Source: an archaeon | GTDB taxonomy: Archaea > Asgardarchaeota > Thorarchaeia > Thorarchaeales > Thorarchaeaceae | Assembly (NCBI GenBank): GCA_024275415.1 | Contig: JAJRZD010000006.1 | Location: 1 to 29,672 of the forward strand | DNA: 29,672 nt | Direction: 5' to 3' | Part shown: positions 3,427 through 23,604 of the stretch, in pieces | Layout of the letters: each line of letters starts with the position of its first letter | Numbering within the stretch: the stretch's first letter is position 1 | The notes under the pieces: generated by a model | The model's input: only the letters and a program-made list of their open reading frames with translations | Told to the model about the DNA's origin: nothing | The model's database searches: none | Translations under genes and position numbers: made by a program

Positions 3427-3427
3427 A

Positions 3428-5275: not shown

Positions 5276-7657
5276 CTAACCGAATAATGAGTATTCCTTC
5301 ACTTTCTCAGCCATTTCTTTAAGGCGTTTGTCTACCAAGTAATAGACACTGCCTTCTTCAAAGGAGCCATCTTCGAGCCTCTTTCCAGCCTTGACGCCTG
5401 TCAGTATCTCGATGCCCTCTTCGATTGTACGGATGGGATAGATGTGGAACTTGCCATCTCGCGCGGACTGCACCACTTCCTCTTTTAGCATGAGGTTCTG
5501 TACATTGCTTTCAGGAATAAGCACCCCTTGATCACCAGTGAGTCCCTTTGCCTTGCACACCTCGTAGAATCCTTCGACCTTTTCATTGACGCCTCCGATT
5601 GCCTGCACTTGTCCGTGTTGGTCGACAGACCCAGTCACAGCAAAGTTCTGCTTTATGGGCACTCCAGAAAGTGCTGATAGAAGGGCGTAGAGTTCTGTGC
5701 TTGAAGCGCTGTCACCATCTACACCAGAATAGCTCTGTTCGAATACAATCCTTGCAGTCAGGCTGAGCGGTTTGTCCTGAGCAAAGACTTTTGAGAGATA
5801 CCCTGCGATGATCATGACTCCCTTTGTGTGTATATTCCCACCAAGATTTGATTCCCGCTCGATATCAACAAGTCCCTGTCGTCCTACAGCCACGCTTGCG
5901 GTCACTCGTGAGGGGCCTCCAAAGCTGAAATCACCAAATTGCATGACGGCAAGGCCATTGATCTGCCCGACAACACTTCCCTCGGTCTGGATACGGATGA
6001 CTCCTCGGATGATGTAGTCGCGAAGGTGTTCCTGTATCAAGTTCGAGCGATATATCTTCGCTTCGATTGCCATCTCGATGTGTTTGGCAGATACATGGGG
6101 AGTGTCTTCCTGTGAAGCATAGAACGTCGCTTCTCGGATAAGGTCGGCCACATCAGCGAACCGAGTGGAAAGCTTGTGCTTGTCAGCTGCTATCCGTGAA
6201 CTAAACTCGATCACTTTGGCTGCTGCGTCAGCATCCAGATGCATCAAGCCTTCTCTACCACAGACATTGGCCATGGCACCAGCATATTTCAAGATGTTCT
6301 CTTCATCTCTGAACATGGTTGTATCAAAGTGTGCCTTGACTTTGAAGAGTTCCTTGAAGTCAGGGTCTTCAGAATACAGCATCTCATACGTAGCTGTATC
6401 ACCAATAATGACAACTTTCACGTTCAATGGAATTGGCTCAGGTTTGAGGGTCTGCGCTGAAAGTGACGTGCCAGGGATGTGTACATCCTCAATTTCGATA
6501 ACCTCGTTTTTCAACGCGCGTTTCAAACTCTCATACGAACCAGGATTCTTGCCAAGACCTTCTATTGGAATCATGATGTACCCGCCGTTGGCTCGATGAA
6601 GGCTCCCGGGCTTTATCATGGTGAAATCCGTCGTGAGAATACCATACCGAGCTTCTTTCTCGATTCTCCCGAAGAGGTTAGCATAGGTCGGGTTCAGCTC
6701 CACGACTACTGGAGCGCCAGTGGTCTTTGCATGGCTCACCATGATGTTTACATCGTAACGAGTGAAGAATTGCTCTAGCCTACCAGCCTCCTCGGCAGAC
6801 TGAGGTGCCTTTGCTTGAATGATTGTTGAGATATTGTTCAGTAGACTCTCTTGTACGTCCTCGATATGTTTTGTAGCTTCATCAATTCCCTTGTACAAAT
6901 CCTTCATATCGGATATCATGTCACCAATCGCATACAGTGCCATCTCACGATTTAGCTTGTCCAGATTGGCATTGAGTTCACTATCCAGCTTCCTGAGCTT
7001 TCTCATGGCCTCCCTTAGATCGGTATCAATCGAGGAGCGGGCTTTGTTGAGTTGGTCAATCACTTCAGGACTGAGAGCAGCGATCTGTTCCTCCGTAAGG
7101 GGTTGCCCCTCAATCACGGGAATGACCATCACACCAGTCTGGGTCCCTTTAAGCAGGAATCCCTTGTCCTGCGCTTTCTTGCTGACCTCGGCGAATATCG
7201 CATTCCTTTGGGCATCAATAGTATGTGTGGTAGCCTGTCTTCGTGTCACGTAATCCTCGCTCTCAAACACTTCAGGAATGACCTGTCTTGTTGCTTCGAT
7301 AAGAGAATTAAGTTCCTTCTTGAACTTCTCAGCCATCCCACTTGGCAGCTCGATGGCATTGGGCTCAGACGGGTTCTCAAAATTGTAGACATAACACCAA
7401 TCAGAAGGTGGGTCACGCACGGCTGCACGTTCGCTGATGAAGGCGTTAACTGTCGTTGTCTTCCCAGTACCAGGTTCTCCAGCAGCATAGACATTGAAGC
7501 CCTTTTCCTTTATCGCCAGACCAAAGCTTAGCGCTTTTAGAGCACGTTCTTGTCCAATGATGTCATTGTTTGGAAGAAGATCCTTCGTCGTCTTACATCC
7601 TATGATATCTGGGCTACAATAAAAACGATAATCTTTCACATCAAGTTCCTTGACCAA
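5276..7657 (-). CDS. lon: Lon-family protease, LonC type (AAA_32 plus Lon_C, no membrane anchor), 793 aa
   Basis: IIGQERA start of the AAA module, Walker A GEPGTGKT, long coiled-coil insertion, KPGSLHRANGGY, Lon Ser-Lys dyad (GVDGDSAS and GGVNEKVEGF), C-terminal GVLIPESNVQNLML. No TM segment is present. Confidence 0.9.
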   Translation of the reverse strand: MVKELDVKDYRFYCSPDIIGCKTTKDLLPNNDIIGQERALKALSFGLAIKEKGFNVYAAGEPGTGKTTTVNAFISERAAVRDPPSDWCYVYNFENPSEPNAIELPSGMAEKFKKELNSLIEATRQVIPEVFESEDYVTRRQATTHTIDAQRNAIFAEVSKKAQDKGFLLKGTQTGVMVIPVIEGQPLTEEQIAALSPEVIDQLNKARSSIDTDLREAMRKLRKLDSELNANLDKLNREMALYAIGDMISDMKDLYKGIDEATKHIEDVQESLLNNISTIIQAKAPQSAEEAGRLEQFFTRYDVNIMVSHAKTTGAPVVVELNPTYANLFGRIEKEARYGILTTDFTMIKPGSLHRANGGYIMIPIEGLGKNPGSYESLKRALKNEVIEIEDVHIPGTSLSAQTLKPEPIPLNVKVVIIGDTATYEMLYSEDPDFKELFKVKAHFDTTMFRDEENILKYAGAMANVCGREGLMHLDADAAAKVIEFSSRIAADKHKLSTRFADVADLIREATFYASQEDTPHVSAKHIEMAIEAKIYRSNLIQEHLRDYIIRGVIRIQTEGSVVGQINGLAVMQFGDFSFGGPSRVTASVAVGRQGLVDIERESNLGGNIHTKGVMIIAGYLSKVFAQDKPLSLTARIVFEQSYSGVDGDSASSTELYALLSALSGVPIKQNFAVTGSVDQHGQVQAIGGVNEKVEGFYEVCKAKGLTGDQGVLIPESNVQNLMLKEEVVQSARDGKFHIYPIRTIEEGIEILTGVKAGKRLEDGSFEEGSVYYLVDKRLKEMAEKVKEYSLFG

Positions 7658-7809: not shown

Positions 7810-8340
7810 CTAGCGTCTTCGTCTGCCGCCACCATAGCCACGGTCTCTTCGGTCTCTGTGTCCACCATAACCGCCACCACGGCCGCCACCATAGCCAGAA
7901 TCGCGACCGCCGTAGCCACCACCACGGCCACCACCGCCACCATAGCGTGGTCGTCTGCGAAAGTCCTCATGTTCCACCGCACTCATATCGTTTTCCATGT
8001 TGACTTCTTCGATTTCTTCCTCAGCATCAGACACTTCGCCGTATTTACCAATGTTCAAGCGTAGGTTGCTTTTGAAAAGACCTGTGTATCCATTCTTGAG
8101 CTGATAGGTGGATCCAACTTCCATTGAATCGATGCTATCATCCCAGAGGGGGACTAGAACAGTGCCTGTGGAATCACCAACGATAGCATCAGCAACCCTA
8201 TGGGTCGTACCATCGTTTCGCGATGTGACTTCACGTGCCTCGCCAATCTCCACCATCTTAAAGGTGATAGTGATATTCTTCATGCGGGGTTTCAACTCCG
8301 CAATAGTAGCCTCAATAGGCTCACGTTCGTAACTACTCAT
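7810..8340 (-). CDS. ssb: Single-stranded DNA-binding protein, single OB fold (crenarchaeal SSB type) with Gly/Arg/Tyr-rich tail, 176 aa
   Basis: IAELKPRMKNITITFKMVEIGEAREV...VADAIVGDSTGTVLVPLWDD...G.TYQLKNGYT..FKSNLRLNIGKYGEV is the OB-fold SSB pattern, followed by an acidic linker and an RGG/GYGG tail. Start moved from TTG 8385 to ATG 8340. Confidence 0.9.
   Translation of the reverse strand: MSSYEREPIEATIAELKPRMKNITITFKMVEIGEAREVTSRNDGTTHRVADAIVGDSTGTVLVPLWDDSIDSMEVGSTYQLKNGYTGLFKSNLRLNIGKYGEVSDAEEEIEEVNMENDMSAVEHEDFRRRPRYGGGGGRGGGYGGRDSGYGGGRGGGYGGHRDRRDRGYGGGRRRR
7826..7945 (-). repeat. Imperfect coding repeats for the RGGGYGG tail of SSB
   Basis: ccgccaccatagcc occurs at 7826-7839 and 7883-7896, with further ccgccaccac/ccaccaccac variants up to ~7945. 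Confidence 0.8.
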
Positions 8341-8577
8341 TGTGTATTCTCTCGTTAGTGCGAATTGCAGGGGAATCAAAAACAAGATGCGTAACGGAAA
8401 TGTGAAAGAGGGTCTACCAGATTCGTTGCTTCCTTACAGCCCCTTTGAGTTTGCTTTCCTGCATTTCTATTCTTGTTGTTTAGTCCTTATTACTTTGTCC
8501 TTTTTTGTCAGCTATTTAAGAACTACAAAAGATGCCAGAGGTGAATAAAATGTAACGGGCGTAGTTAGAACAGAAAC

Positions 8578-10308: not shown

Positions 10309-11865
10309 TCAACGTGGGATCGTGAATGTGAACCGTGAGCCTTTCCCAACTTTGCTTTCGACGGTAATACTGCCTCCATGCATCTCAACCATCGATTTTG
10401 TGATCCAAAGTCCAAGACCCGTTCCACGAACCGACTCGACATATGGGTTGCTAGAACGATAGAATTTCTCAAAGAGATGTTCAAGATCCTCTGAACTCAT
10501 CCCAATCCCGGTATCTTCGACTGAAACCGCAATTGCTGATTTTCGTTTCCTGACTGTTACAGTGACTCTTCCCCCTTCCTTCGTATACTTGATTGCATTG
10601 GACATCAAATTCAGCAGGATTTGTGAAAGCCTATTGGGATCTGCTTTTATTTCAAGTGGGGATTTCGGAATTCTTGTCTGTAAGCGAATCCTCTTTTCGC
10701 TAGCCTGGGGCGAGAGTCGCTCAATCACATCCTCAATTGAAGATCGCAGGTCAACCTCTACAAGTTTGATGCGGACGGCACCAGATTCGATCTTTGAAAC
10801 TTCCAGAAGGTCGTTCACCAAGTCGCTAAGGTAATTTGCATTACGAGAAACTGTATTGAGAAACTGTCTTTGGTCATCACTAAGTTCTCCTGTATCGCCA
10901 TCAAGCATCATTTCAGTATAACCACGTATAGAAGTCAACGGAGTCCTGAATTCGTGAGTAATGTGAGAGATGAACTCTGTTTTTAGACGTTCCACTTCAC
11001 GTTCACGCGTTACATCACGAAGCACGACAAGAGACCCTATGTATTCCTCGGATTTGCTTTTCACTGGCGATGCGTATATCTCCAAGTTTCGTTTTTGAGG
11101 CCAGACCTGTGTATAGGTCGCTTGTTCGGTGAAAGTGCTTTCCGTTGATGTGAAATACTTGGAAAGAACTTCATTAGCGTTCTCAAATGCTTTTTGAAGG
11201 TGTGAATGGAGTGCCTCTGTGGTAATGGACGAATCAGAGGTGTATTGGACAAGGAACATGTCTTCAAAGCTACGGTTGAACCACAGGATGTCATGTTGAT
11301 TTGAGATGAGTACCATCGCTTCACCTGTTGCATTGAGAATGGCATCCTTTTCAGTTCGGGCATTTTCCAGTGCAGTTGTCGCTTCTTTCAACTCCTTCAT
11401 GAGTGGCATGAGGGTTGTCAGCAACTCGTTCTGTTTCTCTTCTGACTGCTTCAATCTTTCTTGCAATTCCATCTCACGAGTGATATCTTCATAGAGTGCA
11501 ATAAAGTGGGTTATCCCCTGTTTTCTTTTTTTGAATGGGATAATTCTAAGGCGGAGATGAAGTAGGCTTCCATTTCGGTCACGGTTGGTCACTTGACCTT
11601 CCCAAATCTTGCCCTTCGTAATGGTCTTCCATAGTTTGCCATAGAATCGATTATCATGTACTTGGGATTTGAATATCTCCGGCGTCATTCCGACGATATC
11701 TGCAACAGAATATCCTGTGAGGTCTCCGAACCTTTCGCTGCCCCAGAGAATGATGCCGTTAGAATCTGTGATGAATGCAGGGACTGCACTTAGAACAGAA
11801 TGGATGAGATACTCCCACTCTTCGTGTCGTAATGTGGATGGAGGCGCCACTGTCAATATCATCAC
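10309..11865 (-). CDS. PAS-PAS sensor histidine kinase (canonical HisKA plus HATPase_c), up to 518 aa
   Basis: H-box ITHEFRTPLTSIRGY, N box NLMSNAIKY, G1 DTGIG, F box LFEKFYR, G2 GTGLGL. Two PAS domains with a coiled coil between them. Starts immediately after the helicase stop (GTG 11865, ATG 11862 or TTG 11856 behind AGGTGA). Confidence 0.92.
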   Translation of the reverse strand: MMILTVAPPSTLRHEEWEYLIHSVLSAVPAFITDSNGIILWGSERFGDLTGYSVADIVGMTPEIFKSQVHDNRFYGKLWKTITKGKIWEGQVTNRDRNGSLLHLRLRIIPFKKRKQGITHFIALYEDITREMELQERLKQSEEKQNELLTTLMPLMKELKEATTALENARTEKDAILNATGEAMVLISNQHDILWFNRSFEDMFLVQYTSDSSITTEALHSHLQKAFENANEVLSKYFTSTESTFTEQATYTQVWPQKRNLEIYASPVKSKSEEYIGSLVVLRDVTREREVERLKTEFISHITHEFRTPLTSIRGYTEMMLDGDTGELSDDQRQFLNTVSRNANYLSDLVNDLLEVSKIESGAVRIKLVEVDLRSSIEDVIERLSPQASEKRIRLQTRIPKSPLEIKADPNRLSQILLNLMSNAIKYTKEGGRVTVTVRKRKSAIAVSVEDTGIGMSSEDLEHLFEKFYRSSNPYVESVRGTGLGLWITKSMVEMHGGSITVESKVGKGSRFTFTIPR

Positions 11866-14800
11866 CTATCCAAGTACTGCCTGAATCCAGCCCTTGATGA
11901 TCAATGGATCTTTCTCCCGAAGAAGTTTGGCAAGGTGCAGCTTCAATTGCGAGGGTGAATGTTCTCTGGGATCCTTGACATAGACTAATGGTGCATGTGC
12001 TTCGCCCTTTGAACATTCCCCAGTAAAGGGATGGACTGAGTAACTATGGGAGTGCTTTCTAGCGATATTCTGCTTTCTGTGCCATGTATTTGTCCGACGC
12101 CGATATCGAATCTGAGAATTAGATCCCATGGCCTTCACTAGCTCGTAAATATGAGTGACTTTATTTCTTGACTCCATCAGCTCAACAGCAAGCTGAATCC
12201 GTTCATCTTGTGTGAATCTGGCAAGGTTCCCTTGTGATATCTTCTTGGAAAGATCGACTCCCCCATTAACAGTATAGTCCAGATTGGAAACCCGAACCTG
12301 CTTTTCCGTGTGTACATTTTGAAGTAACTTCTTTTCGGATTCCTCAAGGCTGACATCCAAATGTTTTGAGCCGTCCGTATTATTCTCAGCTTCTGAGAAG
12401 CCAAGCAGCCGAATCATTAGCTCGTAACATTCTCTGTTCCATGTACGCAAGGCTCGCATCGTCCTACCTCGAAGCTGCTGCCATGCTGTAACATTCCGCG
12501 TTGTAGTAGCATCGATGAGTAGGTTTGGTGTGATCACGTTCCACCCTGTCCGCGCCCATCCGGAAACTATGATGGTATTCAATGACAACTCAGGGGCGTC
12601 AACAACACGAGCTGCAAGATCGTACATGAGTTGTTTGCGATCACCTTGAGCCATCCGGACAACAAAGAACTTCTGAACCTTTCCATCAGCCTGTTCCAAT
12701 GTCGCTAGATGTGGTTTCTTGAATTTATAGGCGATAATCGCGTAATCAACGAATGTCCCTAACCATTTCCTGATATGTGAATTCTGTAATGTCAATCGAC
12801 TCTTGAGCAACAGGGCTTCTGATGGGATGCTCTCGTCCAATGCATTTCGTAGTTCCTCAAGGATAATATTCTCGAAAACATTTGGAGGTGGAGCTCTGTA
12901 CCTAGAAGAAATCTTGAGGAATTCACGAAATCTCTTCCTGAATCTGAGTGCGAGAATCTCCAGTGCATCTTGATTCTCAGCACATTCCCTAGAAAGGATT
13001 GAGAGAAATGCTTCACCTAATTCCTCATTCAGTATTTTCTTTCGAATGAAATCGGAAATCTGTAGAGGTATCGGATTGCTCTCGGCCCAAGGCATATACA
13101 TCTCGCTTGAGAGAACTGCAAGCGGTTTCAGATTACGTTTTCCCAGCAGCTGGGCGAAGATTCCCGCAACACCTGCATAACCCGGATTCGTCGTTCCTTG
13201 CTCCCAGCGTATTCTCTTTCCGGTTCCAAAAACGATAGTCCCGGTCACCCTTCGCGCCATACTCTCGGCTCGGATAATCGAGTGGATGGAATCAACAATT
13301 CCCTCGCCCATCCGGTAGTATATACTTCTGAGTGCACTGAAAAGACCTACAATACTTGTAGAGATGATAGAACGAATCTGCGATCGCTTTGAAGCCTTTG
13401 TCAAGCCATCATCCTGAATTACCCTCTCAATACGGTGAAAATCAAAAGTTGAACCAAATCCAGGTTGTTTCAGGAGTTTGACAATGTCAGAATAAAAAAT
13501 CCAGTTCTGCAAGTCGCTTCTGATTGTTTCGATATCGTGAATGATTTTCTCGTACTTGCTTAATGTCATCCCACGGTTGACTGGTTCTATGGTCGAGATC
13601 TTTTGCATTACCAACGCTTCGTCTGAGAGTTTCTCATAGACTTGGATGATTGTGATAATGGACAACTCATTCAGGGTTATGGCACCGCTTCGTTCCCACT
13701 TTCTCAAACGGCTCCGTATTGCTCGGTTCCTGTTCTTACGCCCCTCGTACATACCGAGGACATTTCTGGCGATGTACACGCGCTCAGCTGATGGTATCGC
13801 TGCAAATCTCTGCTTGATGAACTCAGTGTCTAGAAGATTCACGTAGCTTCGAATTAATTCCTTGTACCTGTCTAATAGTGCAAGAACCTTCTTCTCTCGG
13901 TCAGAATGCGTGAATGGGATACCCAGCTCGGCGAATGGTGCGACAAATCCATATGCGATGAGATCAGCCGTCGGCATGACATAGACGAGCTTCAGACCCA
14001 CTTCTTCGAATCTCTCACGATAGGCATCTGCGGTTCCTGAGAAACCTATCAATCCTTCAAGGCTCCCGTCCTTCAGCCAATCCACAAGAAGTCTTGTGAC
14101 TCCGGCCGATACGCTTTGAAGGTTTTCAACAACTTTATGCACTTCGTCCAATACTATATTCCTGATATTGGCACCTTGAAGGAATTTCTCGACTGAAACG
14201 TGGTCGAACCCGCCCTTTCCTTTTGGCGAGCCAAGCTGTGCCAGAGATGTATATGTCATTATCAGGACAGGTGGTGTGTAACCATCCCGTTTCCGTTTAT
14301 CAAGATACGCAGATGGAGACCCGGCATACACCAAGTCAGGTGATAGACCCAGGCCAATATCATTGTAACACAGTTCACGCACCCACTGCTGTTCGTAGTT
14401 TACGGTTGGAACAAGAACAAGAATCGACTCTCCGGAAGATAATGATGTCAGCCAGTCTTGGATTGCCATCATCCCAATCAATGTCTTTCCTGAACCTGTC
14501 GGAGCCTCAATCACATGACCCTGATACCCATGTGCTCGGAAGATAGAGAATGCTTCTCGTTGATAAGGCCGAGGTGTCTGTGAGCCGATTAGATCCCTAC
14601 AGTGAAAGCGATTCATTAGTGTCTCACGAACTTCTGTCCCAAGAAGGTCTGAAACCGTAGCAACAAAGAGTTCGGAAACAACAATCCCACAACTTGTTTC
14701 TTGTTCGAAGAATCCATGAAACTCTTGAATCTTGTTCATAATATTAGAAATCCCAATAAAGCCTTTCCTTTCAAACCGCTGGTATATTTCTCGTCCGAGA

Positions 14801-15441
14801 AACGCCTGCAAGCTAGCATCATCTAAGTTTGTGGATTTGTAGACTCTTCGAGTTCTCTTGTATGTATTATCTACCTTCAGTACATGTCCCTTTGCCTCAA
14901 GCTCCCCAAGCAATCTTTTGATATCGTTCTTTCGAATCCCTGTGAGAAAGGTATGAGAGAGGATGTACTTGGTGAGAGCATCTATCGATTGCGGTTGTGA
15001 CGAGTTGGACAAGGCTTTGACAAGCAAATCCTTGATGATTTGTTTTTTGAGTGTGGTGTCAATGGTCAATGGCAAGGGAATCGAGTTGGGAGCGGCTGCA
15101 TACATATCGTAGATTGGCGTCTTAAGAGCCATGAGGCTTCTAAGCGAAGAAACAATCAGTACAGAACTCTGTCTAAGATATCCCTCTCGAAATGCCATCA
15201 TCGCTCTGTTGTAGTAATCAATGAGTGCATAGAATCTACTTTTCATCCCTGCAACGTTACCCTGCCTGACGCTTTCCTCAAATTCTCTATGTACCCTTGA
15301 CGCAAAGGATTGAGCTTGCCAATAGTCCACAGTAATTCTTTGATCACATCTTTGCCCGAGGAGTTGATCGATAGCGGATTCGAAGAACTGAGCCCTTTCA
15401 TCAACTTCAGTTTTCTTCTTGTGAAATCCCTCTTCAAGCAT
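11866..15441 (-). CDS. Large superfamily-2 (DExH, ResIII/XPB-like) helicase/translocase with N-terminal helical and winged-helix extension, 1191 aa
   Basis: Q-motif PRPYQREA, Walker A APTGSGKT (14482-14505), Ia VLVPT, Walker B DEVH (14137-14148), III FSGT, V GWARTGWN, VI WQQLRGRTMR. There are ~290 aa before the core and ~480 aa inserted between motifs III and V. Confidence 0.85.
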   Translation of the reverse strand: MLEEGFHKKKTEVDERAQFFESAIDQLLGQRCDQRITVDYWQAQSFASRVHREFEESVRQGNVAGMKSRFYALIDYYNRAMMAFREGYLRQSSVLIVSSLRSLMALKTPIYDMYAAAPNSIPLPLTIDTTLKKQIIKDLLVKALSNSSQPQSIDALTKYILSHTFLTGIRKNDIKRLLGELEAKGHVLKVDNTYKRTRRVYKSTNLDDASLQAFLGREIYQRFERKGFIGISNIMNKIQEFHGFFEQETSCGIVVSELFVATVSDLLGTEVRETLMNRFHCRDLIGSQTPRPYQREAFSIFRAHGYQGHVIEAPTGSGKTLIGMMAIQDWLTSLSSGESILVLVPTVNYEQQWVRELCYNDIGLGLSPDLVYAGSPSAYLDKRKRDGYTPPVLIMTYTSLAQLGSPKGKGGFDHVSVEKFLQGANIRNIVLDEVHKVVENLQSVSAGVTRLLVDWLKDGSLEGLIGFSGTADAYRERFEEVGLKLVYVMPTADLIAYGFVAPFAELGIPFTHSDREKKVLALLDRYKELIRSYVNLLDTEFIKQRFAAIPSAERVYIARNVLGMYEGRKNRNRAIRSRLRKWERSGAITLNELSIITIIQVYEKLSDEALVMQKISTIEPVNRGMTLSKYEKIIHDIETIRSDLQNWIFYSDIVKLLKQPGFGSTFDFHRIERVIQDDGLTKASKRSQIRSIISTSIVGLFSALRSIYYRMGEGIVDSIHSIIRAESMARRVTGTIVFGTGKRIRWEQGTTNPGYAGVAGIFAQLLGKRNLKPLAVLSSEMYMPWAESNPIPLQISDFIRKKILNEELGEAFLSILSRECAENQDALEILALRFRKRFREFLKISSRYRAPPPNVFENIILEELRNALDESIPSEALLLKSRLTLQNSHIRKWLGTFVDYAIIAYKFKKPHLATLEQADGKVQKFFVVRMAQGDRKQLMYDLAARVVDAPELSLNTIIVSGWARTGWNVITPNLLIDATTTRNVTAWQQLRGRTMRALRTWNRECYELMIRLLGFSEAENNTDGSKHLDVSLEESEKKLLQNVHTEKQVRVSNLDYTVNGGVDLSKKISQGNLARFTQDERIQLAVELMESRNKVTHIYELVKAMGSNSQIRYRRRTNTWHRKQNIARKHSHSYSVHPFTGECSKGEAHAPLVYVKDPREHSPSQLKLHLAKLLREKDPLIIKGWIQAVLG

Positions 15442-15454
15442 CTCATATCATTCC

Positions 15455-16087
15455 TCATCGGGTGTAGCAGCTAGTTGCGAAATCATGTTCTGCTGGCTGC
15501 TTTCGTTTTATGAGCACAACATTCACACGCTCGATTAGTTCTCTGGGGCTGAACGGTTTCGTGATATAGTCGTCAGCTCCAGATGAAAGCCCTTTCACCA
15601 TATCTGCGTCTTCGGATTTTGCTGTCAGCATGATTACAGCAGGTGCAGCATCTCCAAGCTTGGATTTGATCTCTGATACCACCTGATACCCATCTTTTCC
15701 AGGCATCATTACATCGACAATCACAACCTCTGGTTTATACATGAACACCTTCTTTATTCCTTCAATCCCATCGGACGCCGTAATTACTTCAAACCCGTCC
15801 TTGGAAAGTTTAATTTGAATGAGCCTGCGTATGTCTGCTTCATCGTCAATTGCAACGATTCGGATAGCATCGGATGGTTCAACCTCTGTGTAGTCTTTAG
15901 ATTTCAAGATACGATAAAGAAGAAACGTTCCTACTAGAATGAAGACAATGCCAGCTGTATTTAGACTGGTTCCAAAAACGGGGTCAATAGAGATACTTGT
16001 AGTCAGAACGAGAATGATTAGTAGTGTTCCAGTTATGAAGAGCACCAGAGACGACAGGATACCGATGTGTTTCATTGAATCTCGCAC
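15455..16087 (-). CDS. Membrane-anchored response regulator: two N-terminal TM helices plus one REC domain, about 210 aa
   Basis: Hydrophobic IGILSSLVLFITGTLLIILVL and TAGIVFILVGTFLLY, then REC with IDDE, phospho-Asp IVDVMMPG, MLTA and ITKPFSPREL. Start placed at GTG 16087 behind the strong SD AGAGGTGATCC (16099-16089). The longer ORF from 16165 runs through AT-rich promoter-like DNA. Confidence 0.8.
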   Translation of the reverse strand: MRDSMKHIGILSSLVLFITGTLLIILVLTTSISIDPVFGTSLNTAGIVFILVGTFLLYRILKSKDYTEVEPSDAIRIVAIDDEADIRRLIQIKLSKDGFEVITASDGIEGIKKVFMYKPEVVIVDVMMPGKDGYQVVSEIKSKLGDAAPAVIMLTAKSEDADMVKGLSSGADDYITKPFSPRELIERVNVVLIKRKQPAEHDFATSCYTR

Positions 16088-16088
16088 T

Positions 16089-16160
16089 GGATCACCTCTA
16101 TTATTTAGGATATTAGACATAAAATAATGATATATTTGGTTATTATGTATATTTGCGACT
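16089..16160 (-). promoter_or_regulatory. AT-rich promoter-like segment and SD for the TM-REC / helicase / kinase unit
   Basis: Minus strand reads aaatatacataataaccaaatatatcattattttatgtctaatatcctaaataatagaggtgatcc. AGGTGATCC is complementary to the conserved 16S rRNA 3' end. Confidence 0.5.
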
Positions 16161-16161
16161 T

Positions 16162-17439
16162 TCATAGAATGACGTCCGACAGATAACGTCCGTACTTGTC
16201 ATGGCAACGTTTCCTAATTGGATCAAGCACCTCTTTCTCTACATCAATCCTAGTTTCTGCTGCGAGAAGTTCCGAAATGATGTCCATGACTTTGTCAATT
16301 CCTTCATAGATGTCATTTAGGTCTGTAGGCGTTGTATCTGCCTCAAGAGGATAGACCAATGTGGAGTCTGCTCTCACCGAGAATGTTCCAACGCGAGGAA
16401 GTTCATCAATAAGATAATCGATGGCTTGATCGAGATATGATTTTGCTGTTGAACTCCCAACAAGGTTTGCACACGCCTGTAGGAATTGCGAGAGAATGCA
16501 ATCGTTTAGCAGCAATATTCGACGTTCTAATGGGATTCGCTGAATGAAACCATTACTGATGAGGCGACCAAGTTCAAGCAATAGCTCTTCGTTCTCACGT
16601 ATGCCCAGTTCTTTGAGAATTTCGGTCACAGTCTTTCTACCGTCCAACTTGGTCAGGAAACGCAAGAGATTATGGGATAGAGAATATGGATTACCTTTCG
16701 CGAATAGCAATGTCGAAGACCCCTCAGAAAGAGACAAGATATCTTCACCATCAGGAATCGAGATAACCTTCGCTGCATGGTTCCAGAATGCCCTCGAAAC
16801 GAACTCCTTCGCATCATTGATGCTTATCTTCTGATGCTGTGCTATCTCTTGTATCGAATTCCAATCCTCACTTTGCAAGAGGGTCTTGGTGACTTTGTAG
16901 ACCGTGGATGGCCGACCAAGTTCTCGTAACTTCTCTCTCCAATCAGGAGGCTTGATGACTATCGCCCTGTTGGAGATATAGTCGCTAGTGAACACTCTCC
17001 GGACGTAAGCATCGAACTCCTTGAAAAGGGTGCCTCGTACATGATCCATATCCCGCAGGAGCTGGAAGCTCTCCTCAAACTCCTGAACGATGCGTCGGAG
17101 TTTACTTCGTGCTTCGCTTGTTTCTCGCTGAACAGCAAGGACTCCAAGGCACCATTCGCCTCCTTCAACAATTAGGGTTGCATTAGACCCGTAGACGGTC
17201 TTCCATGCACGTTGGTTTTTCCCGATGAGCTCACCCATGAAGCTCGAGATAGCCGAGATGAGACCAGACAGTAGCTGTGGATCCTGACCACTTGTCACAA
17301 ACTCGTGTGAATAGGGACAAACACCAGATTCGCGGTTCAGGATGAATACGACTATTTCGTTACACTGTATTTCGCCACCGAGTTCTGCTGCATCAAACCC
17401 AGCATCCCTCAGAGAAGATGCAACTTCATTCATAACCAT
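16162..17439 (-). CDS. Asgard-type longin-like domain protein with two predicted winged-helix domains, 425 aa
   Basis: N-terminal VVFILNRESGVCPYSHEF...DPQLLSGLISAISSFMGEL...LIVEGGEWCLGVLAV...ARSKLRRIVQEFEESF is the beta-beta-alpha-beta-beta-beta-alpha longin pattern. It is followed by wHTH-like SIQEIAQHQKISINDAKEFVSRAFW and LDGRKTVTEILKELG...LGRLISNGFIQRI. SD GAGG lies upstream of ATG 17439. Confidence 0.7.
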   Translation of the reverse strand: MVMNEVASSLRDAGFDAAELGGEIQCNEIVVFILNRESGVCPYSHEFVTSGQDPQLLSGLISAISSFMGELIGKNQRAWKTVYGSNATLIVEGGEWCLGVLAVQRETSEARSKLRRIVQEFEESFQLLRDMDHVRGTLFKEFDAYVRRVFTSDYISNRAIVIKPPDWREKLRELGRPSTVYKVTKTLLQSEDWNSIQEIAQHQKISINDAKEFVSRAFWNHAAKVISIPDGEDILSLSEGSSTLLFAKGNPYSLSHNLLRFLTKLDGRKTVTEILKELGIRENEELLLELGRLISNGFIQRIPLERRILLLNDCILSQFLQACANLVGSSTAKSYLDQAIDYLIDELPRVGTFSVRADSTLVYPLEADTTPTDLNDIYEGIDKVMDIISELLAAETRIDVEKEVLDPIRKRCHDKYGRYLSDVIL

Positions 17440-17447
17440 CGCCTCAT

Positions 17448-17813
17448 TCAGGCTGCTGCTACTGACGTTTCTAGTATGCTGAATAAATCTGCGCTTCGAA
17501 TCGGCTTTGTTAGGAACGCCACCGCACCTGAAGAAAGTGCCTCTGCCTTCACGGTATCATCTGCACTTATGAAAATGACCACAAGATTCGGATTGATCTC
17601 CTTTAACTTCTTCGTGGCCTCAGAACCATTCATCACGGGCATTCGATGATCCATTAGGATAACCTCTGGTTTTGGCTCGGACTGAAGATAGTTCGAAATC
17701 GCCTCGGCGCCATTGCTGGCCTGAGAAACCACCTTATGACCTCCGATTGTCAGAATCCTGTTCAAGACTTTTCTTAGAAATTGGTCGTCGTCCACAATCA
17801 TTACTGAAACCAT
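17448..17813 (-). CDS. Stand-alone response regulator (REC), 121 aa
   Basis: IVDDD, phospho-Asp LMDHRMP, FISAD, LTKP. True start is ATG 17813, one base after the upstream kinase TAA. The longer ORF-track version overlaps that kinase. Confidence 0.92.
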   Translation of the reverse strand: MVSVMIVDDDQFLRKVLNRILTIGGHKVVSQASNGAEAISNYLQSEPKPEVILMDHRMPVMNGSEATKKLKEINPNLVVIFISADDTVKAEALSSGAVAFLTKPIRSADLFSILETSVAAA

Positions 17814-17814
17814 C

Positions 17815-18918
17815 TTATGCAACCTCCTGACTTTTTGCCTTGGCCAATCCCGTATTCTCACCTCTATGCAACATAAGTACAAAAGATGCTCCTTCTTTGC
17901 TCTTCCCAGGAATCCGGTCTTCCACTCTGATATAGCCCCCATAATGCTCCACGATTTTTTTCACAAGTGTCAGCCCTAATCCCAATCCTTCCCTTGTGAG
18001 CTGGCGATGGACTGACTCCTGAAAGATGAGCTCCTTCTCTGAATCAGGAATGCCAGGACCATCATCCTTCACCTCAATACGAAGGAATGGTGTGAATTGA
18101 ACTGGCTGAACAACCACCTAGATTGTAACATCCTTCTTCTTGCTATGTTTCAACGAATTGTGCAATAGGCTGTAGAATATGTCTACAAGGTATTCATCAG
18201 CGACGACAAAGTATTCGCCGTGTTCAACATCTGTAACAAGCTTCAATGTCTTTTCAGGAAATGCCAAACGTGCTTGGATTGCCCCGCGAAGCAGAGCGAG
18301 TGAGATGTCCATGCACTGTAGGTCAGGCAACGCTTTTGAAACGATTGAAATCTTGCGTACGCTGGATATCAGACGCGTTGCTCTCTCAATCTCTGAAATC
18401 CCTTCTTTGATAATCCCAACTGTTTCATTCGGAAGATCCTCGTTCAGAATGAGGAAATCAAGCATGGAGATTATCTCCTGATGGATGTTTGCAAGATCGT
18501 GGGTCATGATATCAATCAGAAACTCAGTCTGATTACGCTCACGTTCCAAATCCTCTTCCATTTTCTTTTGTTTAGAGATATCCCTGAACAATGCGATTGT
18601 GGATACCTTCTTTCCACCTTCGAAGAACGGCGAAAATGCTCCCTCGACATGAAGCATCTCTCCTTCCTTTGTGACCATAATTGTCTGCACATCTGAAATG
18701 ATTTCATGTGTATCCTTTGTTACTATCGCCTTGATTTTCTTCTGCTCACCAGGGAAGAAGATTGTTCCGATACTTAGAGTGTCAATCTCCGATTCCGAAT
18801 AATGCAGCTTCTCCATAAGCGCCCGGTTGACGTAGCTGAAAGTACCATCTTTATTGATACTTGTAATAATATCATTGGTGCCTTCCATTAAATGCCAAGC
18901 TATTTGCATCGGATCCAT
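17815..18918 (-). pseudogene. PAS histidine kinase interrupted by one in-frame TAG (18118-18120) inside HATPase_c; 367 aa if read through
   Basis: ORFs 18118-18918 and 17815-18117 are contiguous and in the same frame: ...NSLKHSKKKDVTI*VVVQPVQFTPFLRIEVKDDGPGIP... The H-box MTHDLAN and N box lie before the stop, and G1 DDGPG and G2 GLGLGL lie after it, all intact. Confidence 0.75.
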
Positions 18919-18985
18919 TTTGCCCTACCTCAAATTGAGATTCCTTTGGTCCTTTTGGCGCTAGACATACCACTGTAATCATGAA

Positions 18986-19002
18986 TTTATATACTTTTAT
19001 CG
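18986..19002 (-). promoter_or_regulatory. BRE plus TATA promoter of the interrupted PAS kinase
   Basis: Minus strand cgataaaag-tatataaa, about 68 nt upstream of ATG 18918, preceded by the T-tract cttttatttttt that could terminate the upstream REC gene. Confidence 0.6.
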
Positions 19003-19032
19003 TAGAAATTATTATAAAAAATAAAGGATACG

Positions 19033-19398
19033 CTACTTTTCACCAAGACAGGATTTAACGGCCCGAAATAAATCCGCGCTGCGAATTGGCTTTAGGAGGA
19101 ACCCAACAGCACCTGCCTTCAGAGCCTCTGATTCCGCGGTTTCGTCAGCACTGATGAATAGAATTCTTTGTGTACTGTCTAATGCGAGAATTTCTCGTGT
19201 TGCGGTAGTACCATCCATGACAGGCATCCGATGATCCATAAGAATGATGTCAGGTTTTGTTTTTGAGTTCCTGATGAACTCGACAGCCTCACTCCCATTA
19301 TATACACTACCAACTACCTTATGGCCTTCGAGTTTAAGGACACGAACCAATACCTTGTGCAGTGACTCATCATCATCGACGATCAAGAATGTCCCCAT
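19033..19398 (-). CDS. Stand-alone response regulator (REC), 121 aa, paralog of 17448-17813
   Basis: IVDDD, LMDHRMP, FISAD, LLKP. Start placed at ATG 19398 behind GAGGT. Confidence 0.92.
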   Translation of the reverse strand: MGTFLIVDDDESLHKVLVRVLKLEGHKVVGSVYNGSEAVEFIRNSKTKPDIILMDHRMPVMDGTTATREILALDSTQRILFISADETAESEALKAGAVGFLLKPIRSADLFRAVKSCLGEK

Positions 19399-19498
19399 CT
19401 GGTCAAACCTCATATACAATACGGCTAAGTCCGCGAAGTAGTGCCTTTTTTATCTATATTGTATAACCCGTTTCATGTGATGCGTACAAGAATGAAAG

Positions 19499-19731: not shown

Positions 19732-22700
19732 ATGGAACCTGTATACTCAAGAGATATCCTAGAAAAAATCCAATCTGGCATCCTGATAATCGATTTAAAA
19801 ACGCACAAAGTTATTGATGTGAACAAGAGCGCCCTTAAAATGCTTAAGAGGCAAAGAAAAACAGTCATCGGATCCAGTTGTTATGACCTGTTCTGTAAAG
19901 GTACCTCAACTGAGTGTCCCCGTGAAAATGGGAAAATGACCGATTCTCCAATTGAACAGAAACTGGTTAGACGAGATGGAACCGAGATCCCTGTCCTTTT
20001 GACATGTTCAGAAGTGATTATCCAGCGCAGAAGAAAGCTCATTGTGAATATCAATGATCTGTCATCACTTGTATCAACTCGGATGGAATTGGAACAAGAA
20101 AGGAACAAGATCAAACGATATCTCGACATTGCAGATGTCTTGATTGTGACAGTCGGAACAGATGGGAAAGTGCAAATGATTAACCAGCGGGGCGCAAAGG
20201 TTCTTGGCTACCCCCAGAGAAATATCATCGGAAAGGACTGGTTTGATAACTTCATCTCTCCTAGTATGAGAGAGCAGCTAAGGACAATCCACTCGTGTAT
20301 ACTCGAAGGGGAGATCGAACCCTACAGATATGTTGAAGGGACTATCCTAACGAAGACCGGTGAGGAGCGATTAATCGCATGGAGAAACGCACCAGTCTAT
20401 AGTGATGAAGGTATTATCACTGCAACGATAAGCTCAGGGATGGATATCACAGAGAGGCGGATAATCGAGCAGTCACTTCGAGAGAACGAGATGCGGACTA
20501 GGAAGATTCTAGACTCGATTCAGACGGGGGTCGTCATTGTAGACGCAAAAACTCGAAAGATTGTCGAAGCAAACCCAGCTGCCCACAGAATTTTAGAAGT
20601 AGAACACGGGAAACTGATTGGAACTGACTGTAGAGATTCCCTATGTGCATCGGATGAATGTCTAGGTTCCCAGAAGAACTTCGTCAATGTGGAAGTGGAA
20701 TGCAAAAGTGGGAAAGGAAACCCGATTTATGTACTCAAGAATGTGTCAAGAATGCTTATCGGTGAACAGGTGTTTCTGATTGAAGCATTTCTAGACCTCT
20801 CGGATAGAAAGGCCGCCGAGAACGAGCTTCAATCTGTAAACCATCGCCTGAAAGAACGCATCAAGGAGATTCAGACTTTACTCCGAACTAGCGAGTTAGT
20901 CCATATGGCTAATACTGATCTGGATTCAGTCTTTGAAAAAATACCTAGGATCATTCAAGACGGTTTTCAGTATCCCGAGATTACACACGTAAGAATCACA
21001 GTTAATGACAGGAGTTACTTTTCTCGCGACTTCAAGGCATCAAATTGGCAACTTTCCACCCCAATCAGTTTTCAAGAAGAGGAATTTGGTTCGATTGATG
21101 TATTCTATGTGGAAGAAAAACCAGACGAAGATGAGGGGCCATTTCTAAAAGAAGAACGGGATTTACTGAATGCACTCGGTCAGCAAATTGGAACGGTGAT
21201 ATATCAGAAGCAAATTGAGGCTGCCATTGACAAAGAACGTAGGCTTTTGGACACTCTGACCAATACGACGCTTGATGCCATCATCTTGATGGATCCCGAA
21301 GGGAAAATTGCTTACTGGAATCACTCCGCACAAGTAATCTTCGGGTATACACCTGAAGAAGCGATAGGAAAACATCTACATTACTTGCTGGCACCAAAAC
21401 GATATCACAACGCTTATCGTGAGGCGTTTAAAGAATTCCTCCAGACTGGCAAGGGAAATGCCATTGGAAAGGTCGTTGAACTCCACGGTCGTCGGAAAGA
21501 CGGGTCTGAATTTCCTATTGAATTATCATTGTCGGCATTCCATGATATCAAAGGATGGAATGCTGTAGGTAGCATAAGGGACAGCACAGACAGACAGAAG
21601 GCAATGGAGGCAATCAAGGAGTCTGAGAGAAGGTATCGAGATCTCATAGATTTGTTACCAGAAGGCGTGGCGATTGGTGACCTCGATGAAACTATTGTGC
21701 TTGCAAACAAAGCGATGGCAATGCTTGTGGGACTTAATTCTGCTGAGGAACTAATTGGTAGGAACCTAGTCGACTTCATTGACGAGAAGGATCGCCTCAT
21801 GCTAGAAGCCGAAACTAATCGTCGTGGATCAGGAGCGGTTTCGTCGTACACGCTTCATTTCCGTGATGTTCATAATAACATCAAGGAAGTATACGTTTCA
21901 GCAGTTCCACGAAGGAACAATGAGGGTGAGGTCATTGGTGCAGTAGGTGTATTTGTTGATGTCACAGAGCGCAGAAGAACCGAGCGTGAATTGCGCCGGA
22001 CTAGCTATAACCTTCAAAAACGAATGAAGGAGATTCAGGCGCTGTTCAACATTTCAGACCTATTGAAAGTGACGCAGACAAGTAAACGCTCGAAGACATC
22101 ACGATCTGAATTACTTTTCAGGATTATCAGTGAGGTCATTGGGGCTTTACAGTATCCCCATGTTGGTTGTGGGCGTATTTCAGTTGGTTCAGACGTTGGA
22201 GAAACAGCCAACTACCAATCTGAAGCAATCTCCGTACGTGAGGGAATCTGGGCAGGAGGGAGCCAGATAGGTGTGATTGAGGTGGGCTATACCGAACTGA
22301 TGCCGGAAGCCGATGAGGGGCCCTTCTTGGATGAAGAGATAGGGCTAATAAGAAAGATCTCAGTAGAGATTGGGCTTTATGTCGAACGAGAGATTGCAGA
22401 GGAGGCGCTCGAAGAACAACGTAAGACACTTGGCGCAATAACTAATTCAACATTCGATGCAATAGTGATGGTGGACTGGGATGGCAAGATTGCCTATTGG
22501 AATCCCGCAGCTGAACGAATATTCGGATATAAACCCTCCAACATCCTCGGCAAGACTGTTCATTCCATATGTGAGGGAATTAGCCAAATAACCGAAACAC
22601 AATCGGTGGAAGACTCAGATTCAGTCGTAGAGTCAAAAATCCTAGAGCTTGAGGCGATCCGTGAGGATGGGACACGGTTTCCAGCTGAAGTTGCTATGGC

Positions 22701-23442
22701 GCCTATCCTTATTGGTGACAAGTACGGAACCTTGATGAATATTCGTGACATATCTGAGAGAAAGTCGATTGAGCGTGAACGTGAGCAACAGCAACGTGAG
22801 CTTGAGCTGTACGCATCACTGCTTAGGCATGACCTTGGGAATGATCTCAACGCTATTGTTTCAAACATGGAAGTTGTCCGGATGCTACTTGAAGAAGACC
22901 CGGATGAGGCAAGAGAGTTCCTTCATTCGAGCTTTGCGGCTGCACAAAGAATGGATAATCTCCTGAAATCAGTATCAAGAAGCCCTCTCATGACGAAAAT
23001 GGATTTCGTTGAGATGCTTCGTGAGGTCGCTCGGATAACAGAAAAATCTGCAAGAGGTACAACAATCAGAATAACAACTAATGGTGACCTCTCTGGCATT
23101 CGGGTGAGTGGAAGCAGACTTTTGCCGACTGTTTTTGAGAATCTTTTCAGGAACAGCATCCAGCATTCTGATAAGAGTCCAAAAATTGATGTTTCACTAC
23201 AAAGAGAAGGGGATATCTTGGAGATAATTGTACAGGATAATGGACCAGGAATCCCGAAAGAGATTCGAGAAAACCTCTTTGAGCGAGGTGTTTCAACAAA
23301 GAAACAAGGAGGCGGGGTCGGCCTTTACCTCAGTAAGGAAATAGTCAGAGCATGCAATGGAACCATTGAAGCATTGGAGTCAGAATCAGGGAAAGGTGCC
23401 AAATTCCGAATTGTGCTGCCGACCACTGAATATTATAGATAA
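19732..23442 (+). CDS. Soluble multi-sensor histidine kinase: six PAS/PAC domains, two GAF-like (QYP...EGPFL.EE) modules, HisKA, HATPase_c, 1236 aa
   Basis: Six PAS starts (IQSGILIIDL, ADVLIVTVG, IQTGVVIVDA, TLDAIILMD, LPEGVAIGD, TFDAIVMVD), H-box LLRHDLGND, N box NLFRNSIQH, G1 DNGPGIP, G2 GGVGL. No TM segment. Confidence 0.92.
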   Translation: MEPVYSRDILEKIQSGILIIDLKTHKVIDVNKSALKMLKRQRKTVIGSSCYDLFCKGTSTECPRENGKMTDSPIEQKLVRRDGTEIPVLLTCSEVIIQRRRKLIVNINDLSSLVSTRMELEQERNKIKRYLDIADVLIVTVGTDGKVQMINQRGAKVLGYPQRNIIGKDWFDNFISPSMREQLRTIHSCILEGEIEPYRYVEGTILTKTGEERLIAWRNAPVYSDEGIITATISSGMDITERRIIEQSLRENEMRTRKILDSIQTGVVIVDAKTRKIVEANPAAHRILEVEHGKLIGTDCRDSLCASDECLGSQKNFVNVEVECKSGKGNPIYVLKNVSRMLIGEQVFLIEAFLDLSDRKAAENELQSVNHRLKERIKEIQTLLRTSELVHMANTDLDSVFEKIPRIIQDGFQYPEITHVRITVNDRSYFSRDFKASNWQLSTPISFQEEEFGSIDVFYVEEKPDEDEGPFLKEERDLLNALGQQIGTVIYQKQIEAAIDKERRLLDTLTNTTLDAIILMDPEGKIAYWNHSAQVIFGYTPEEAIGKHLHYLLAPKRYHNAYREAFKEFLQTGKGNAIGKVVELHGRRKDGSEFPIELSLSAFHDIKGWNAVGSIRDSTDRQKAMEAIKESERRYRDLIDLLPEGVAIGDLDETIVLANKAMAMLVGLNSAEELIGRNLVDFIDEKDRLMLEAETNRRGSGAVSSYTLHFRDVHNNIKEVYVSAVPRRNNEGEVIGAVGVFVDVTERRRTERELRRTSYNLQKRMKEIQALFNISDLLKVTQTSKRSKTSRSELLFRIISEVIGALQYPHVGCGRISVGSDVGETANYQSEAISVREGIWAGGSQIGVIEVGYTELMPEADEGPFLDEEIGLIRKISVEIGLYVEREIAEEALEEQRKTLGAITNSTFDAIVMVDWDGKIAYWNPAAERIFGYKPSNILGKTVHSICEGISQITETQSVEDSDSVVESKILELEAIREDGTRFPAEVAMAPILIGDKYGTLMNIRDISERKSIEREREQQQRELELYASLLRHDLGNDLNAIVSNMEVVRMLLEEDPDEAREFLHSSFAAAQRMDNLLKSVSRSPLMTKMDFVEMLREVARITEKSARGTTIRITTNGDLSGIRVSGSRLLPTVFENLFRNSIQHSDKSPKIDVSLQREGDILEIIVQDNGPGIPKEIRENLFERGVSTKKQGGGVGLYLSKEIVRACNGTIEALESESGKGAKFRIVLPTTEYYR

Positions 23443-23604
23443 TCACACTTGCAACATTGGATTGGGTGAGGAAAAGGAACCGATACCCCTCCCTATGCAA
23501 TATATCAACATTCTTGCACAACGTCCAGCACCCCATCGAGTACTGCTTTGTGAATTATTTTTATTCAAACAATACTTTTAACCTAAATTCTTGCATTTCA
23601 GGAT

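Follow-up and report, generated by a model that had tools for sequence, protein, structure and literature searches.

The stretch of DNA analyzed here, called the window below, comprises 29,672 nucleotides of contig JAJRZD010000006.1 (assembly GCA_024275415.1) of an archaeon of the Thorarchaeaceae, and it carries on its minus strand three adjoining genes for a receiver (REC) protein with two predicted membrane helices, a large superfamily 2 (SF2) helicase and a PAS-PAS kinase. The analysis revealed that these three genes form a conserved, co-inherited unit, and that the receiver family is dedicated to the helicase. We consider it fairly probable, though well short of certain, that a signal passes from the PAS kinase to the dedicated receiver and from there to the helicase, with the receiver acting as a subunit of a duplex translocase, either allosterically or by setting its location. 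The genes of the unit and the spacer in front of them are as follows:

15455 to 16087, minus strand: REC gene with two membrane helices, GTG start behind GAGGTGA, 210 aa
11866 to 15441, minus strand: SF2 DExH helicase/translocase gene, 1191 aa
10309 to 11865, minus strand: PAS-PAS-HisKA-HATPase kinase gene, 518 aa, soluble
16088 to 16161, minus strand: A+T-rich spacer, likely promoter region, 74 nt, ending in the Shine-Dalgarno-like GAGGTGA

An earlier sequence-only reading of this DNA had described the three genes as tightly linked behind a shared AT-rich, promoter-like segment with a Shine-Dalgarno sequence. The tight linkage was borne out, with 13 nt between the REC stop codon and the ATG of the helicase and 0 nt between the TAG of the helicase and the GTG of the kinase; alternative REC starts are ATG 16075 and ATG 16120. 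The upstream segment is indeed rich in A+T (75.7%, against 54.8% window-wide) and carries the GAGGTGA, whereas no match to the consensus archaeal TATA word TTTAWATA was found within 16088–16161, and we infer that it is likely the promoter region of the three-gene unit. No sequencing run, of RNA or of DNA, was listed for the 5.9-kb unit, which speaks neither for nor against co-transcription. In four of six Thorarchaeota relatives the REC gene is the first gene of the unit, because the gene 5′ of the anchored REC stands on the opposite strand there. For the same reason, the second receiver gene and the 425-aa protein that precede the unit in the same orientation in the window (16162–17439 and 17448–17942) are not part of the conserved unit; the 425-aa protein had no match in Pfam, NCBIfam, PADLOC or PHROGs. 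It was also observed that the helicase and the kinase stand in one frame across a single TAG (GGA TAG GTG ATG; 11863–11868). The same junction is a gap of ~40 nt or an out-of-frame overlap in the Thorarchaeota relatives, and a putative read-through fusion of the two proteins finds no comparative support.

The neighbourhood of the helicase homologues was surveyed in 80 loci from the species-genome collection and three loci from protein look-ups, in which open reading frames (ORFs) were called, and the 65 loci with ≥700 nt upstream of the helicase were taken as informative. In this survey the linkage claimed for the window was confirmed in other genomes: a small REC gene on the same strand lies directly upstream of the helicase in 55 of the 65 informative loci, which span at least 8 phyla and groups such as Thorarchaeota, Bathyarchaeia, Methanomicrobiales, Chloroflexota and Desulfobacterota, compared with a background of 18 REC domains in 623 other genes of the same loci (2.9%). 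The gap between REC and helicase, measured from the nearest possible start codon, is ≤20 nt or an overlap in 31 of the 55 pairs and ≤120 nt in 53 of them. The 120 best REC relatives are all single-domain proteins of 126–221 aa, many of them on contigs equal in length to contigs with the helicase. The linkage also holds in the reciprocal direction, with four of four REC relatives from contigs where the helicase was not already known directly followed by a helicase of the family, which is broken in L096. In this locus (L096:6497–10093), the helicase behind the dedicated REC is broken up, with an ORF of 624 aa followed by small ones, and it looks like a decaying copy of the module. A PAS-HisKA kinase was located within about 6 kb in 30 of the 65 loci, and 27 of the 93 genes that flank the REC–helicase pair encode PAS-HisKA-HATPase kinases, while the rest are unrelated housekeeping genes. 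All-against-all clustering of the 823 locus ORFs yielded no further conserved partner; one candidate, present in 12 loci, was rejected as an antisense shadow ORF of the REC gene.

The flanking genes also bear on a role in anti-virus defence, which the sequence-only reading had suggested as possible, or in anti-plasmid defence, in which the helicase would sense or attack foreign nucleic acid and would be armed by the two-component pair. Such a role would suit the patchy occurrence of the helicase among close relatives, since 6 of the 24 genomes from this archaeal family and 2 of the 6 from the genus contain it, which makes it an accessory gene, and it would equally suit the resemblance of the core to RIG-I/MDA5/Dicer-type sensors and the CHAT and DUF4062 genes near the bacterial locus L002. 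However, no nuclease, methylase, integrase, toxin or protease that might act as an effector was found among the 93 flanking genes, which apart from the kinases are housekeeping genes differing by locus, and the helicase tree largely follows the phyla, without the scrambling expected of defence islands. The PADLOC matches are weak and lie in the P-loop region (the best being PbeA with 36 bits over 70 residues, and Cas3/DinG with about 20 bits), and the PHROGs matches are generic ones to lobe 1 only. PADLOC-DB v2 returned no full-length component match, and the 93 flanking genes include no companion defence genes. With matches this weak and no effector in the flanks, the suggestion was not borne out, and we regard a defence role as very unlikely.

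The phylogenetic trees revealed that the genes of the unit share their history, and the phylogenies proved congruent. All helicase-adjacent RECs fall into one clade (Shimodaira–Hasegawa-like approximate likelihood ratio test, SH-aLRT, 97), which holds no other REC domain of the same loci and not the window's other receiver; the four 'control' rows inside this clade are adjacent RECs from loci that had been excluded for their shortness. The clades of the REC tree recur in that of the helicase, and the patristic distances of REC and helicase correlate with an r of 0.58 (n = 52), which exceeds all 2000 permutations, with maxima of 0.34 for global permutation and 0.46 within phyla. The catalytic cores of the linked kinases likewise form one group (SH-aLRT 90) without four unrelated kinases, and their branching order repeats the helicase tree. 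In Chloroflexota, the kinase lies upstream and is usually a hybrid with its own extra receiver; the Ktedonobacteria-like rows branch next, and a kinase-downstream clade contains Geobacter, Eubacteriales, Bathyarchaeia, Desulfobacteraceae and Thorarchaeota.

A single clade (SH-aLRT 97) contains the archaeal REC-linked helicases and lies nested in the bacterial ones, in a tree rooted with the Heimdall-type clade described below, whose outgroup branch is long. This nesting fits the claim that the unit, whose components are OmpR/PhoR-like, was acquired as a block, and would place its source in bacteria, the polarity being our reading of a tree with a long outgroup branch. A contig labelled 'Patescibacteria group bacterium' (L016) carries a REC, helicase and kinase near-identical to those of the Bathyarchaeota bin L014 (branch lengths 0.03–0.07), and is probably a mis-binned archaeal contig rather than a case of transfer.

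Several variants of the unit are informative about the tie between REC and helicase. The acceptor Asp is replaced by Glu or Gly in 7 of 54 RECs, which belong to one Chloroflexota/Actinomycetota subclade plus L081, and the loci with such an Asp-replaced receiver directly upstream of the helicase are L036, L039–L043, L055 and L081. In the fetched flanks, a kinase is nearby in none of the 7 Asp-replaced RECs, against 29 of the 47 canonical ones, and all 7 still sit before the helicase. Judged by this residue, they are probably phosphorylation-independent pseudo-receivers, and their persistence next to the helicase without a kinase is the behaviour expected of a subunit-like partner rather than of a phosphate sink. 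In a Dormibacteraeota locus (L048:3861–5951), the kinase and the dedicated REC are fused into one protein of 696 aa, which ends 1 nt before the helicase start. The bacterial homologues L062 and L073 are without REC. In a Heimdall/Promethearchaeati-type clade of helicases (about 30% identity, roughly 1400 aa), the REC slot is filled by an MglA-like small GTPase of 245 aa (PDB 6hjh, E 7e-15; loci L063, L067–L072 and L074, e.g., L069:1824–11600), with two unknown genes and an actin-like ALP_N/MreB-like gene upstream of the GTPase and a RING-finger protein downstream; these eight loci are close kin with fully conserved flanks and amount to about one independent observation.

Contact between the two proteins was addressed by complex prediction with REC residues 72–200 and helicase residues 40–905. 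The predicted complex scored 0.51 (0.50–0.56 in three runs), compared with 0.00 for the best of three controls, and the runs share ≥80% of their contacts, with a predicted local distance difference test score (pLDDT) of the partner of ≥80. Of 80 solved complexes 58 attain the pass mark, as do 2 of 110 mismatched pairs, and a pass at a score of ≤0.60 was seen in only 7 of the 80 solved complexes and in both passing mismatches. The predicted complex, which came without a reported interface, thus gives weak support, and added to the gene linkage it makes it slightly more probable that REC binds the helicase.

These results have to be set against co-expression without contact, in which REC would act on another target or as a phosphate sink and the operon would be shared merely because both are needed under a shared condition. 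The weak complex prediction, which leaves binding a matter of interpretation, counts for this explanation, as does the fact that single-domain receivers are often phosphate sinks or connectors. It is rare, however, for such loose links to persist across bacterial and archaeal phyla together with trees that mirror each other, a REC family of single origin and adjacency in both directions, and the RECs that are without the acceptor Asp and a kinase stay by the helicase, which is unlike a phosphate sink. We therefore judge co-expression without contact to be quite unlikely.

The REC protein consists of two parts, as shown in the following rows:

15488 to 15862, minus strand: receiver domain, residues 76–200, from the alignment of the family
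15902 to 16066, minus strand: two predicted transmembrane helices, residues ~8–62, Kyte-Doolittle 19-residue maximum 2.76

The receiver domain is complete (residues 77–189; Pfam PF00072 Response_reg, E 7e-27) and holds DDYITKPFSPREL. In the alignment, the phospho-acceptor set of the window REC is full (D81, D82, D125, T155 and K177), and the pattern DD-D-(T/S)-K is present in 47 of 54 members of the REC family. The nearest NCBIfam models are OmpR/PhoB-type receivers, all of them far below cut-off and matching the receiver part only, with best scores of 120 bits against a cut-off of 330 for RpaB and 117 against 296 for PhoB. Neither Pfam nor NCBIfam detected a C-terminal winged-helix Trans_reg_C output domain, and the protein ends 10–20 residues past the receiver. 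An assignment of REC as an OmpR/PhoB-family transcription factor was rejected on account of the sub-cut-off scores and the lack of an output domain. The two helices are predicted to lie N-in/C-in according to the positive-inside rule. Among 56 RECs compared, the membrane anchor was observed only in the Thorarchaeota-type ones (the window, L004–L006, L010, L015 and L017), while the other RECs, most of which are ~130–160 aa in length, show no segment of similar hydrophobicity (maxima up to 1.79). The claim of a membrane-anchored REC thus stands for the window, with its two hydrophobic helices, but does not extend to the conserved system, outside which the anchor, as far as hydropathy can tell, is a Thorarchaeota-specific addition.

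The kinase was found by Pfam to contain two PAS domains, a HisKA domain (PF00512, E 4e-22) and a HATPase_c domain (PF02518, E 2e-33), located as follows:

11026 to 11820, minus strand: PAS region
10780 to 10983, minus strand: HisKA
10315 to 10641, minus strand: HATPase

Its H-box is HEFRTPLTSIRGY, and a hydropathy scan gave no hydrophobic segment. The module kinases across the loci carry their own PAS/GAF/DUF4118 input domains. The window pair has the makings of a two-component system, the kinase with its HisKA H-box His and HATPase_c and the receiver with its full acceptor set, and phosphotransfer from the kinase to this REC is favoured by the linkage, the shared phylogeny and the one kinase–REC fusion (L048), which together make it a plausible rather than an observed step. 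The kinase and REC had also been described as OmpR-like and unlike the HDLxN kinases elsewhere in the window; the nearest models of REC agree with this, but the contrast holds only in part, as another window kinase, at 23605–25428, is of the HisKA type.

The helicase had been credited with all core SF2 motifs, and these were recovered in the translation as motif I GSGKT (316–320), motif II DEVH (432–435), motif III SGTA (468–471), motif V TGWN (965–968) and motif VI QQLRGRTMR (988–996). Motifs I, II (DExH), III and VI are invariant in the 84 helicases compared, with K319, T320, D432, E433, H435, T470, R993 and R996 being invariant residues, and the invariants of lobe 2 and the C-terminal part comprise S960, W962–W967, Q989, R993, R996, K1094 and H1097. 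Read from sequence, the catalytic residues of all three proteins of the unit are intact. Pfam sees only RecA lobe 1 (DEAD/ResIII, residues 289–472), and lobe 2 became apparent only in the predicted structure, an AlphaFold2 model with a pLDDT of 86.7 and a predicted template modelling score of 0.82. The domain boundaries given below are a reading of the secondary structure of this model together with the per-domain conservation:

Residues 1–39: N-terminus, disordered and unconserved
14587 to 15324, minus strand: family-specific N-terminal region, residues 40–285, made up of a helical bundle (40–125), a winged helix and a helical linker
14827 to 15063, minus strand: winged helix, residues 127–205
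13906 to 14586, minus strand: RecA-like lobe 1, residues 286–512, with motifs I, Ia, II (DEVH) and III
12718 to 13905, minus strand: mostly helical inter-lobe insert, residues 513–908, ~400 residues
11869 to 12717, minus strand: RecA-like lobe 2 and C-terminal part, with motifs V and VI (909–1015), a variable helical insert (1016–1092) and a conserved part (1093–1191)

Modelled separately, the N-terminal region reached a pLDDT of 83.6, and its winged helix resembles PadR/MarR/Z-alpha/cullin-WHB domains (Z 10–12, root-mean-square deviation (rmsd) 1.1–2 Å over 60–70 residues). Beyond the winged helix, a Foldseek search of the PDB gave no match of this region at E ≤ 0.001, the best being PCI-domain proteins at E 0.09; the atlas template modelling (TM) scores were ≤0.34, and VIA matched designed or generic helical repeats. 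Lobe 1, with a mean identity of 67% in the family, is nearest by sequence to XPB/Rad25 (NCBIfam NF045503, E 5e-8; PDB profile 5fmf, E 2e-6). A short conserved beta segment inside the insert (730–789) probably belongs to lobe 2, to judge from the model. The VIA alignments to XPB, Hef and RIG-I reach model residues 1106–1173, and an ESM Atlas feature search with the C-terminal 160 residues gave a best score of 0.79, which is under the shuffled-protein level. Small proteins matching residues ~1060–1190 were considered as a stand-alone domain and rejected; they look like C-terminal fragments from short contigs and have no Pfam match.

The top Foldseek ranks of the whole model were MDA5, RIG-I, LGP2, Dicer, Hef, FANCM and XPB (E about 1e-6 to 1e-5; MDA5 7bkp 5.7e-7, Hef 1wp9 3.7e-6 and FANCM 9el5 1.4e-5), with TM-scores that are low at 0.2–0.26 by query. 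A second look with VIA ties XPB (Z 18.2), Hef (18.2), UvsW (17.0), FANCM (16.9), RIG-I (16.8) and SNF2 enzymes, all at Z 16–18. Three memberships were tried and rejected: XPB/Rad25, with 31.9 bits against a cut-off of 610 (NF045503, COG1061) and over lobe 1 alone; SWI2/SNF2, with 17.0 bits against a cut-off of 24.9 (PF00176); and RIG-I-like/Hef/FANCM, for which Pfam and NCBIfam found no CARD, zinc C-terminal domain, XPF-type nuclease or RNase III. On these profile scores and the predicted fold, the helicase is best described as a new family in the duplex-tracking branch of SF2, outside XPB, RIG-I-like, Hef and SNF2 enzymes.

Full-length relatives of the helicase are about 1040–1250 aa in length, mostly with 40–55% identity over 96–100% of the query. 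They were found in Thor- and Lokiarchaeota bins, Bathyarchaeia, Methanomicrobiales, Desulfuromonadales/Geobacter, Ktedonobacteria and other Chloroflexota, Actinomycetota and others, with further copies in metagenome bins labelled Geobacter, Trichloromonas and Desulfuromonas, and the cultured Methanosphaerula subterraneus has the REC–helicase pair. The family has few members: when 1.84 billion cluster representatives were scanned exhaustively, 254 matched at E ≤ 0.001, of which 72 reached E ≤ 1e-30, and a good many were fragments, and a one-genome-per-species scan of 185,579 species gave 88 relatives, while the window's own genome holds one copy. No REC–helicase or helicase–kinase fusion was detected among the 120 best relatives (1039–1254 aa) or the 150 best cluster representatives. 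A protein of 246 aa (P0217) joins the first 78 receiver positions to the last ~120 helicase residues, and is most simply explained as a deletion remnant across the REC–helicase junction rather than as a true fusion. In the distant relatives P0190 and P0174 (25–28% identity), no REC or GTPase adjoins the helicase.

The neighbours of the unit in the window encode a GNAT protein, an aldolase, a single-stranded DNA-binding protein (SSB)-like oligonucleotide/oligosaccharide-binding (OB) protein, LonB, and further kinases and receivers. According to Pfam, no methyltransferase, nuclease or repair gene adjoins the unit, just as the sequence-only reading had stated. Two-component genes are unusually dense in the window, with at least 6 kinase-like and at least 5 receiver ORFs in 29.7 kb (1834–5152, 17815–19419 and 19732–25868), and these stretches adjoin a LonB-like protease (5276–7657) and the SSB-like OB protein (7810–8385). 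Because the window is so rich in two-component genes, adjacency within it is not significant by itself, and its significance comes from the other genomes.

In the mechanism that we propose, the cytoplasmic PAS-PAS kinase would sense an intracellular cue and phosphorylate the dedicated single-domain receiver, which, being without an output domain, would bind the 1191-aa SF2 motor and switch its ATP-driven activity or its location. The motor would most likely track along duplex nucleic acid, because it combines a winged helix with an XPB/Hef/RIG-I-like core, and it would thereby remodel DNA structure (less likely RNA structure) or a protein–nucleic-acid complex. In Thorarchaeota, the motor would in addition be kept at the membrane or set free depending on the phosphorylation state of the anchored receiver; sequestration of regulators at the membrane is known, e.g., that of Mlc by PtsG, which offers an analogy for the anchored REC. 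The earlier claim of a phosphorelay with a nucleic-acid motor as its output is thus sustained as far as linkage and shared history go, and beyond these we infer direct binding, the direction from kinase through receiver to helicase, the substrate and the cellular process. Of the observations that the earlier reading had named as refuting it, those open to a sequence-based test were looked for, and none was found.

The signal might also run in the opposite direction, so that the helicase would sense R-loops, stalled forks, double-stranded RNA or damage and modulate the kinase or REC, with the output elsewhere. RIG-I-like helicases are sensors and not remodellers, and the kinase follows the helicase at 0–40 nt in the window and its clade, both of which would agree with such a flow. 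The REC, however, is without an output domain and the loci hold no other conserved partner through which an output could run, the kinases have PAS/GAF/DUF4118 inputs of their own, and the kinase, at 30 of 65 loci, is the least constant partner. We accordingly give this reverse flow little credence.

Several points also weigh against signalling from the kinase through the receiver to the helicase. The kinase is a looser partner than REC, with only 30 of the 65 loci holding one within reach, and the motor can work without REC, since L062, L073 and the Heimdall-type clade have none. The binding of REC to the helicase is argued from the linkage and from one weak prediction that covers helicase residues 40–905. 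The structural matches, tied at Z 16–18, single out no helicase family or substrate, and cross-talk with other kinases and receivers may occur in a region so crowded with two-component genes.

A comparison with known systems shows what is familiar and what is new in the unit. Like CheY-type single-domain regulators (CheY-FliM, CpdR-ClpXP and DivK), the REC is a receiver that stands by itself, its acceptor pocket complete and no output domain attached, and it is encoded near a kinase; the output must therefore run through protein–protein contact. Unlike in these regulators, the partner is a 1200-aa SF2 helicase, the receiver is OmpR/PhoB-like rather than CheY-like by sequence, and in Thorarchaeota it is membrane-anchored. 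NtrC consists of a REC, an AAA+ motor and a helix-turn-helix (HTH) domain, and NtrC-type enhancer-binding proteins resemble the unit, by analogy only, in that a phosphorylated receiver controls an ATP-driven motor with an HTH-type domain; they differ from it in that here an SF2 motor takes the place of the AAA+ one, the receiver forms a protein of its own, there is no sigma-54 link and the winged helix is N-terminal.

Among helicases, XPB is the duplex-DNA translocase of TFIIH and of the archaeal XPB-Bax1. XPB/Rad25/Ssl2 (COG1061) has the nearest lobe 1 sequence, sharing motif II (DEVH) and motif Ia (QW..E), and matches the model with Z 18.2 (2fwr, rmsd 21.9, 328 aligned) and Z 18.1 (6p4f, rmsd 2.6, 307 aligned), tied with other SF2 enzymes. 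The window helicase, by contrast, is about 700 residues larger and has the ~400-residue insert and a different N-terminal domain; in its translation no RED motif was seen after motif III, unlike in XPB, and no Bax1-like nuclease or TFIIH subunit was found among the window neighbours or the 93 flanking genes. The best Foldseek matches are Hef/FANCM and RIG-I/MDA5/Dicer, and a helical insertion between or within the RecA lobes, to which the helical insert of the window helicase may correspond in principle, is a hallmark of the Hef/FANCM/RIG-I/Dicer helicases; the identity to these is however 10–18%, the insert is about three times longer here, and neither a CARD nor a nuclease, RNase III or zinc C-terminal domain is present. 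MglA-type GTPase switches are related to the system in that a different two-state switch fills the REC slot in the Heimdall-type sister clade, and not among the window's genes. Literature searches found no description of a receiver–helicase module, and Pfam, NCBIfam, PADLOC and PHROGs have no model of the helicase family beyond lobe 1. Single-domain receivers with protein targets are already known, and what is new is a co-evolving SF2 helicase as the target.

A more far-reaching version of the mechanism, which we think unlikely, is that of a signal-gated duplex translocase as a regulatory output, in effect the logic of NtrC carried over to an SF2 engine of the XPB type, in which the switch would license the winged-helix motor to open or remodel particular DNA or transcription complexes. 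The switch would be the receiver in most lineages and the MglA-like GTPase in the Heimdall-type one, and release from the membrane would be the control step in Thorarchaeota. If this were true, two-component systems would gain a further class of output, and Asgard archaea would offer a prokaryotic precedent for the regulated remodelling of promoters or chromatin in the manner of XPB/TFIIH.

Sensing in prokaryotes is wired mainly through two-component systems, for which the outputs known so far are DNA-binding domains, some few enzymes, ANTAR RNA-binding domains and a small number of protein targets, the flagellar switch among them. With a dedicated receiver family that co-evolves with a giant SF2 motor in bacteria as well as in methanogens, Bathyarchaeia and Asgard archaea, these outputs would come to include a nucleic-acid motor. 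The linkage also provides a handle for finding the function of a family of ~1200-residue proteins that is now labelled just 'DEAD/DEAH box helicase', and the family offers natural experiments in the membrane-tethered REC of Thorarchaeota, the kinase-less RECs with Asp-to-Glu/Gly replacements and the GTPase replacement in the sister clade. As at least one carrier of the pair, Methanosphaerula subterraneus, is cultured, the idea is directly testable.

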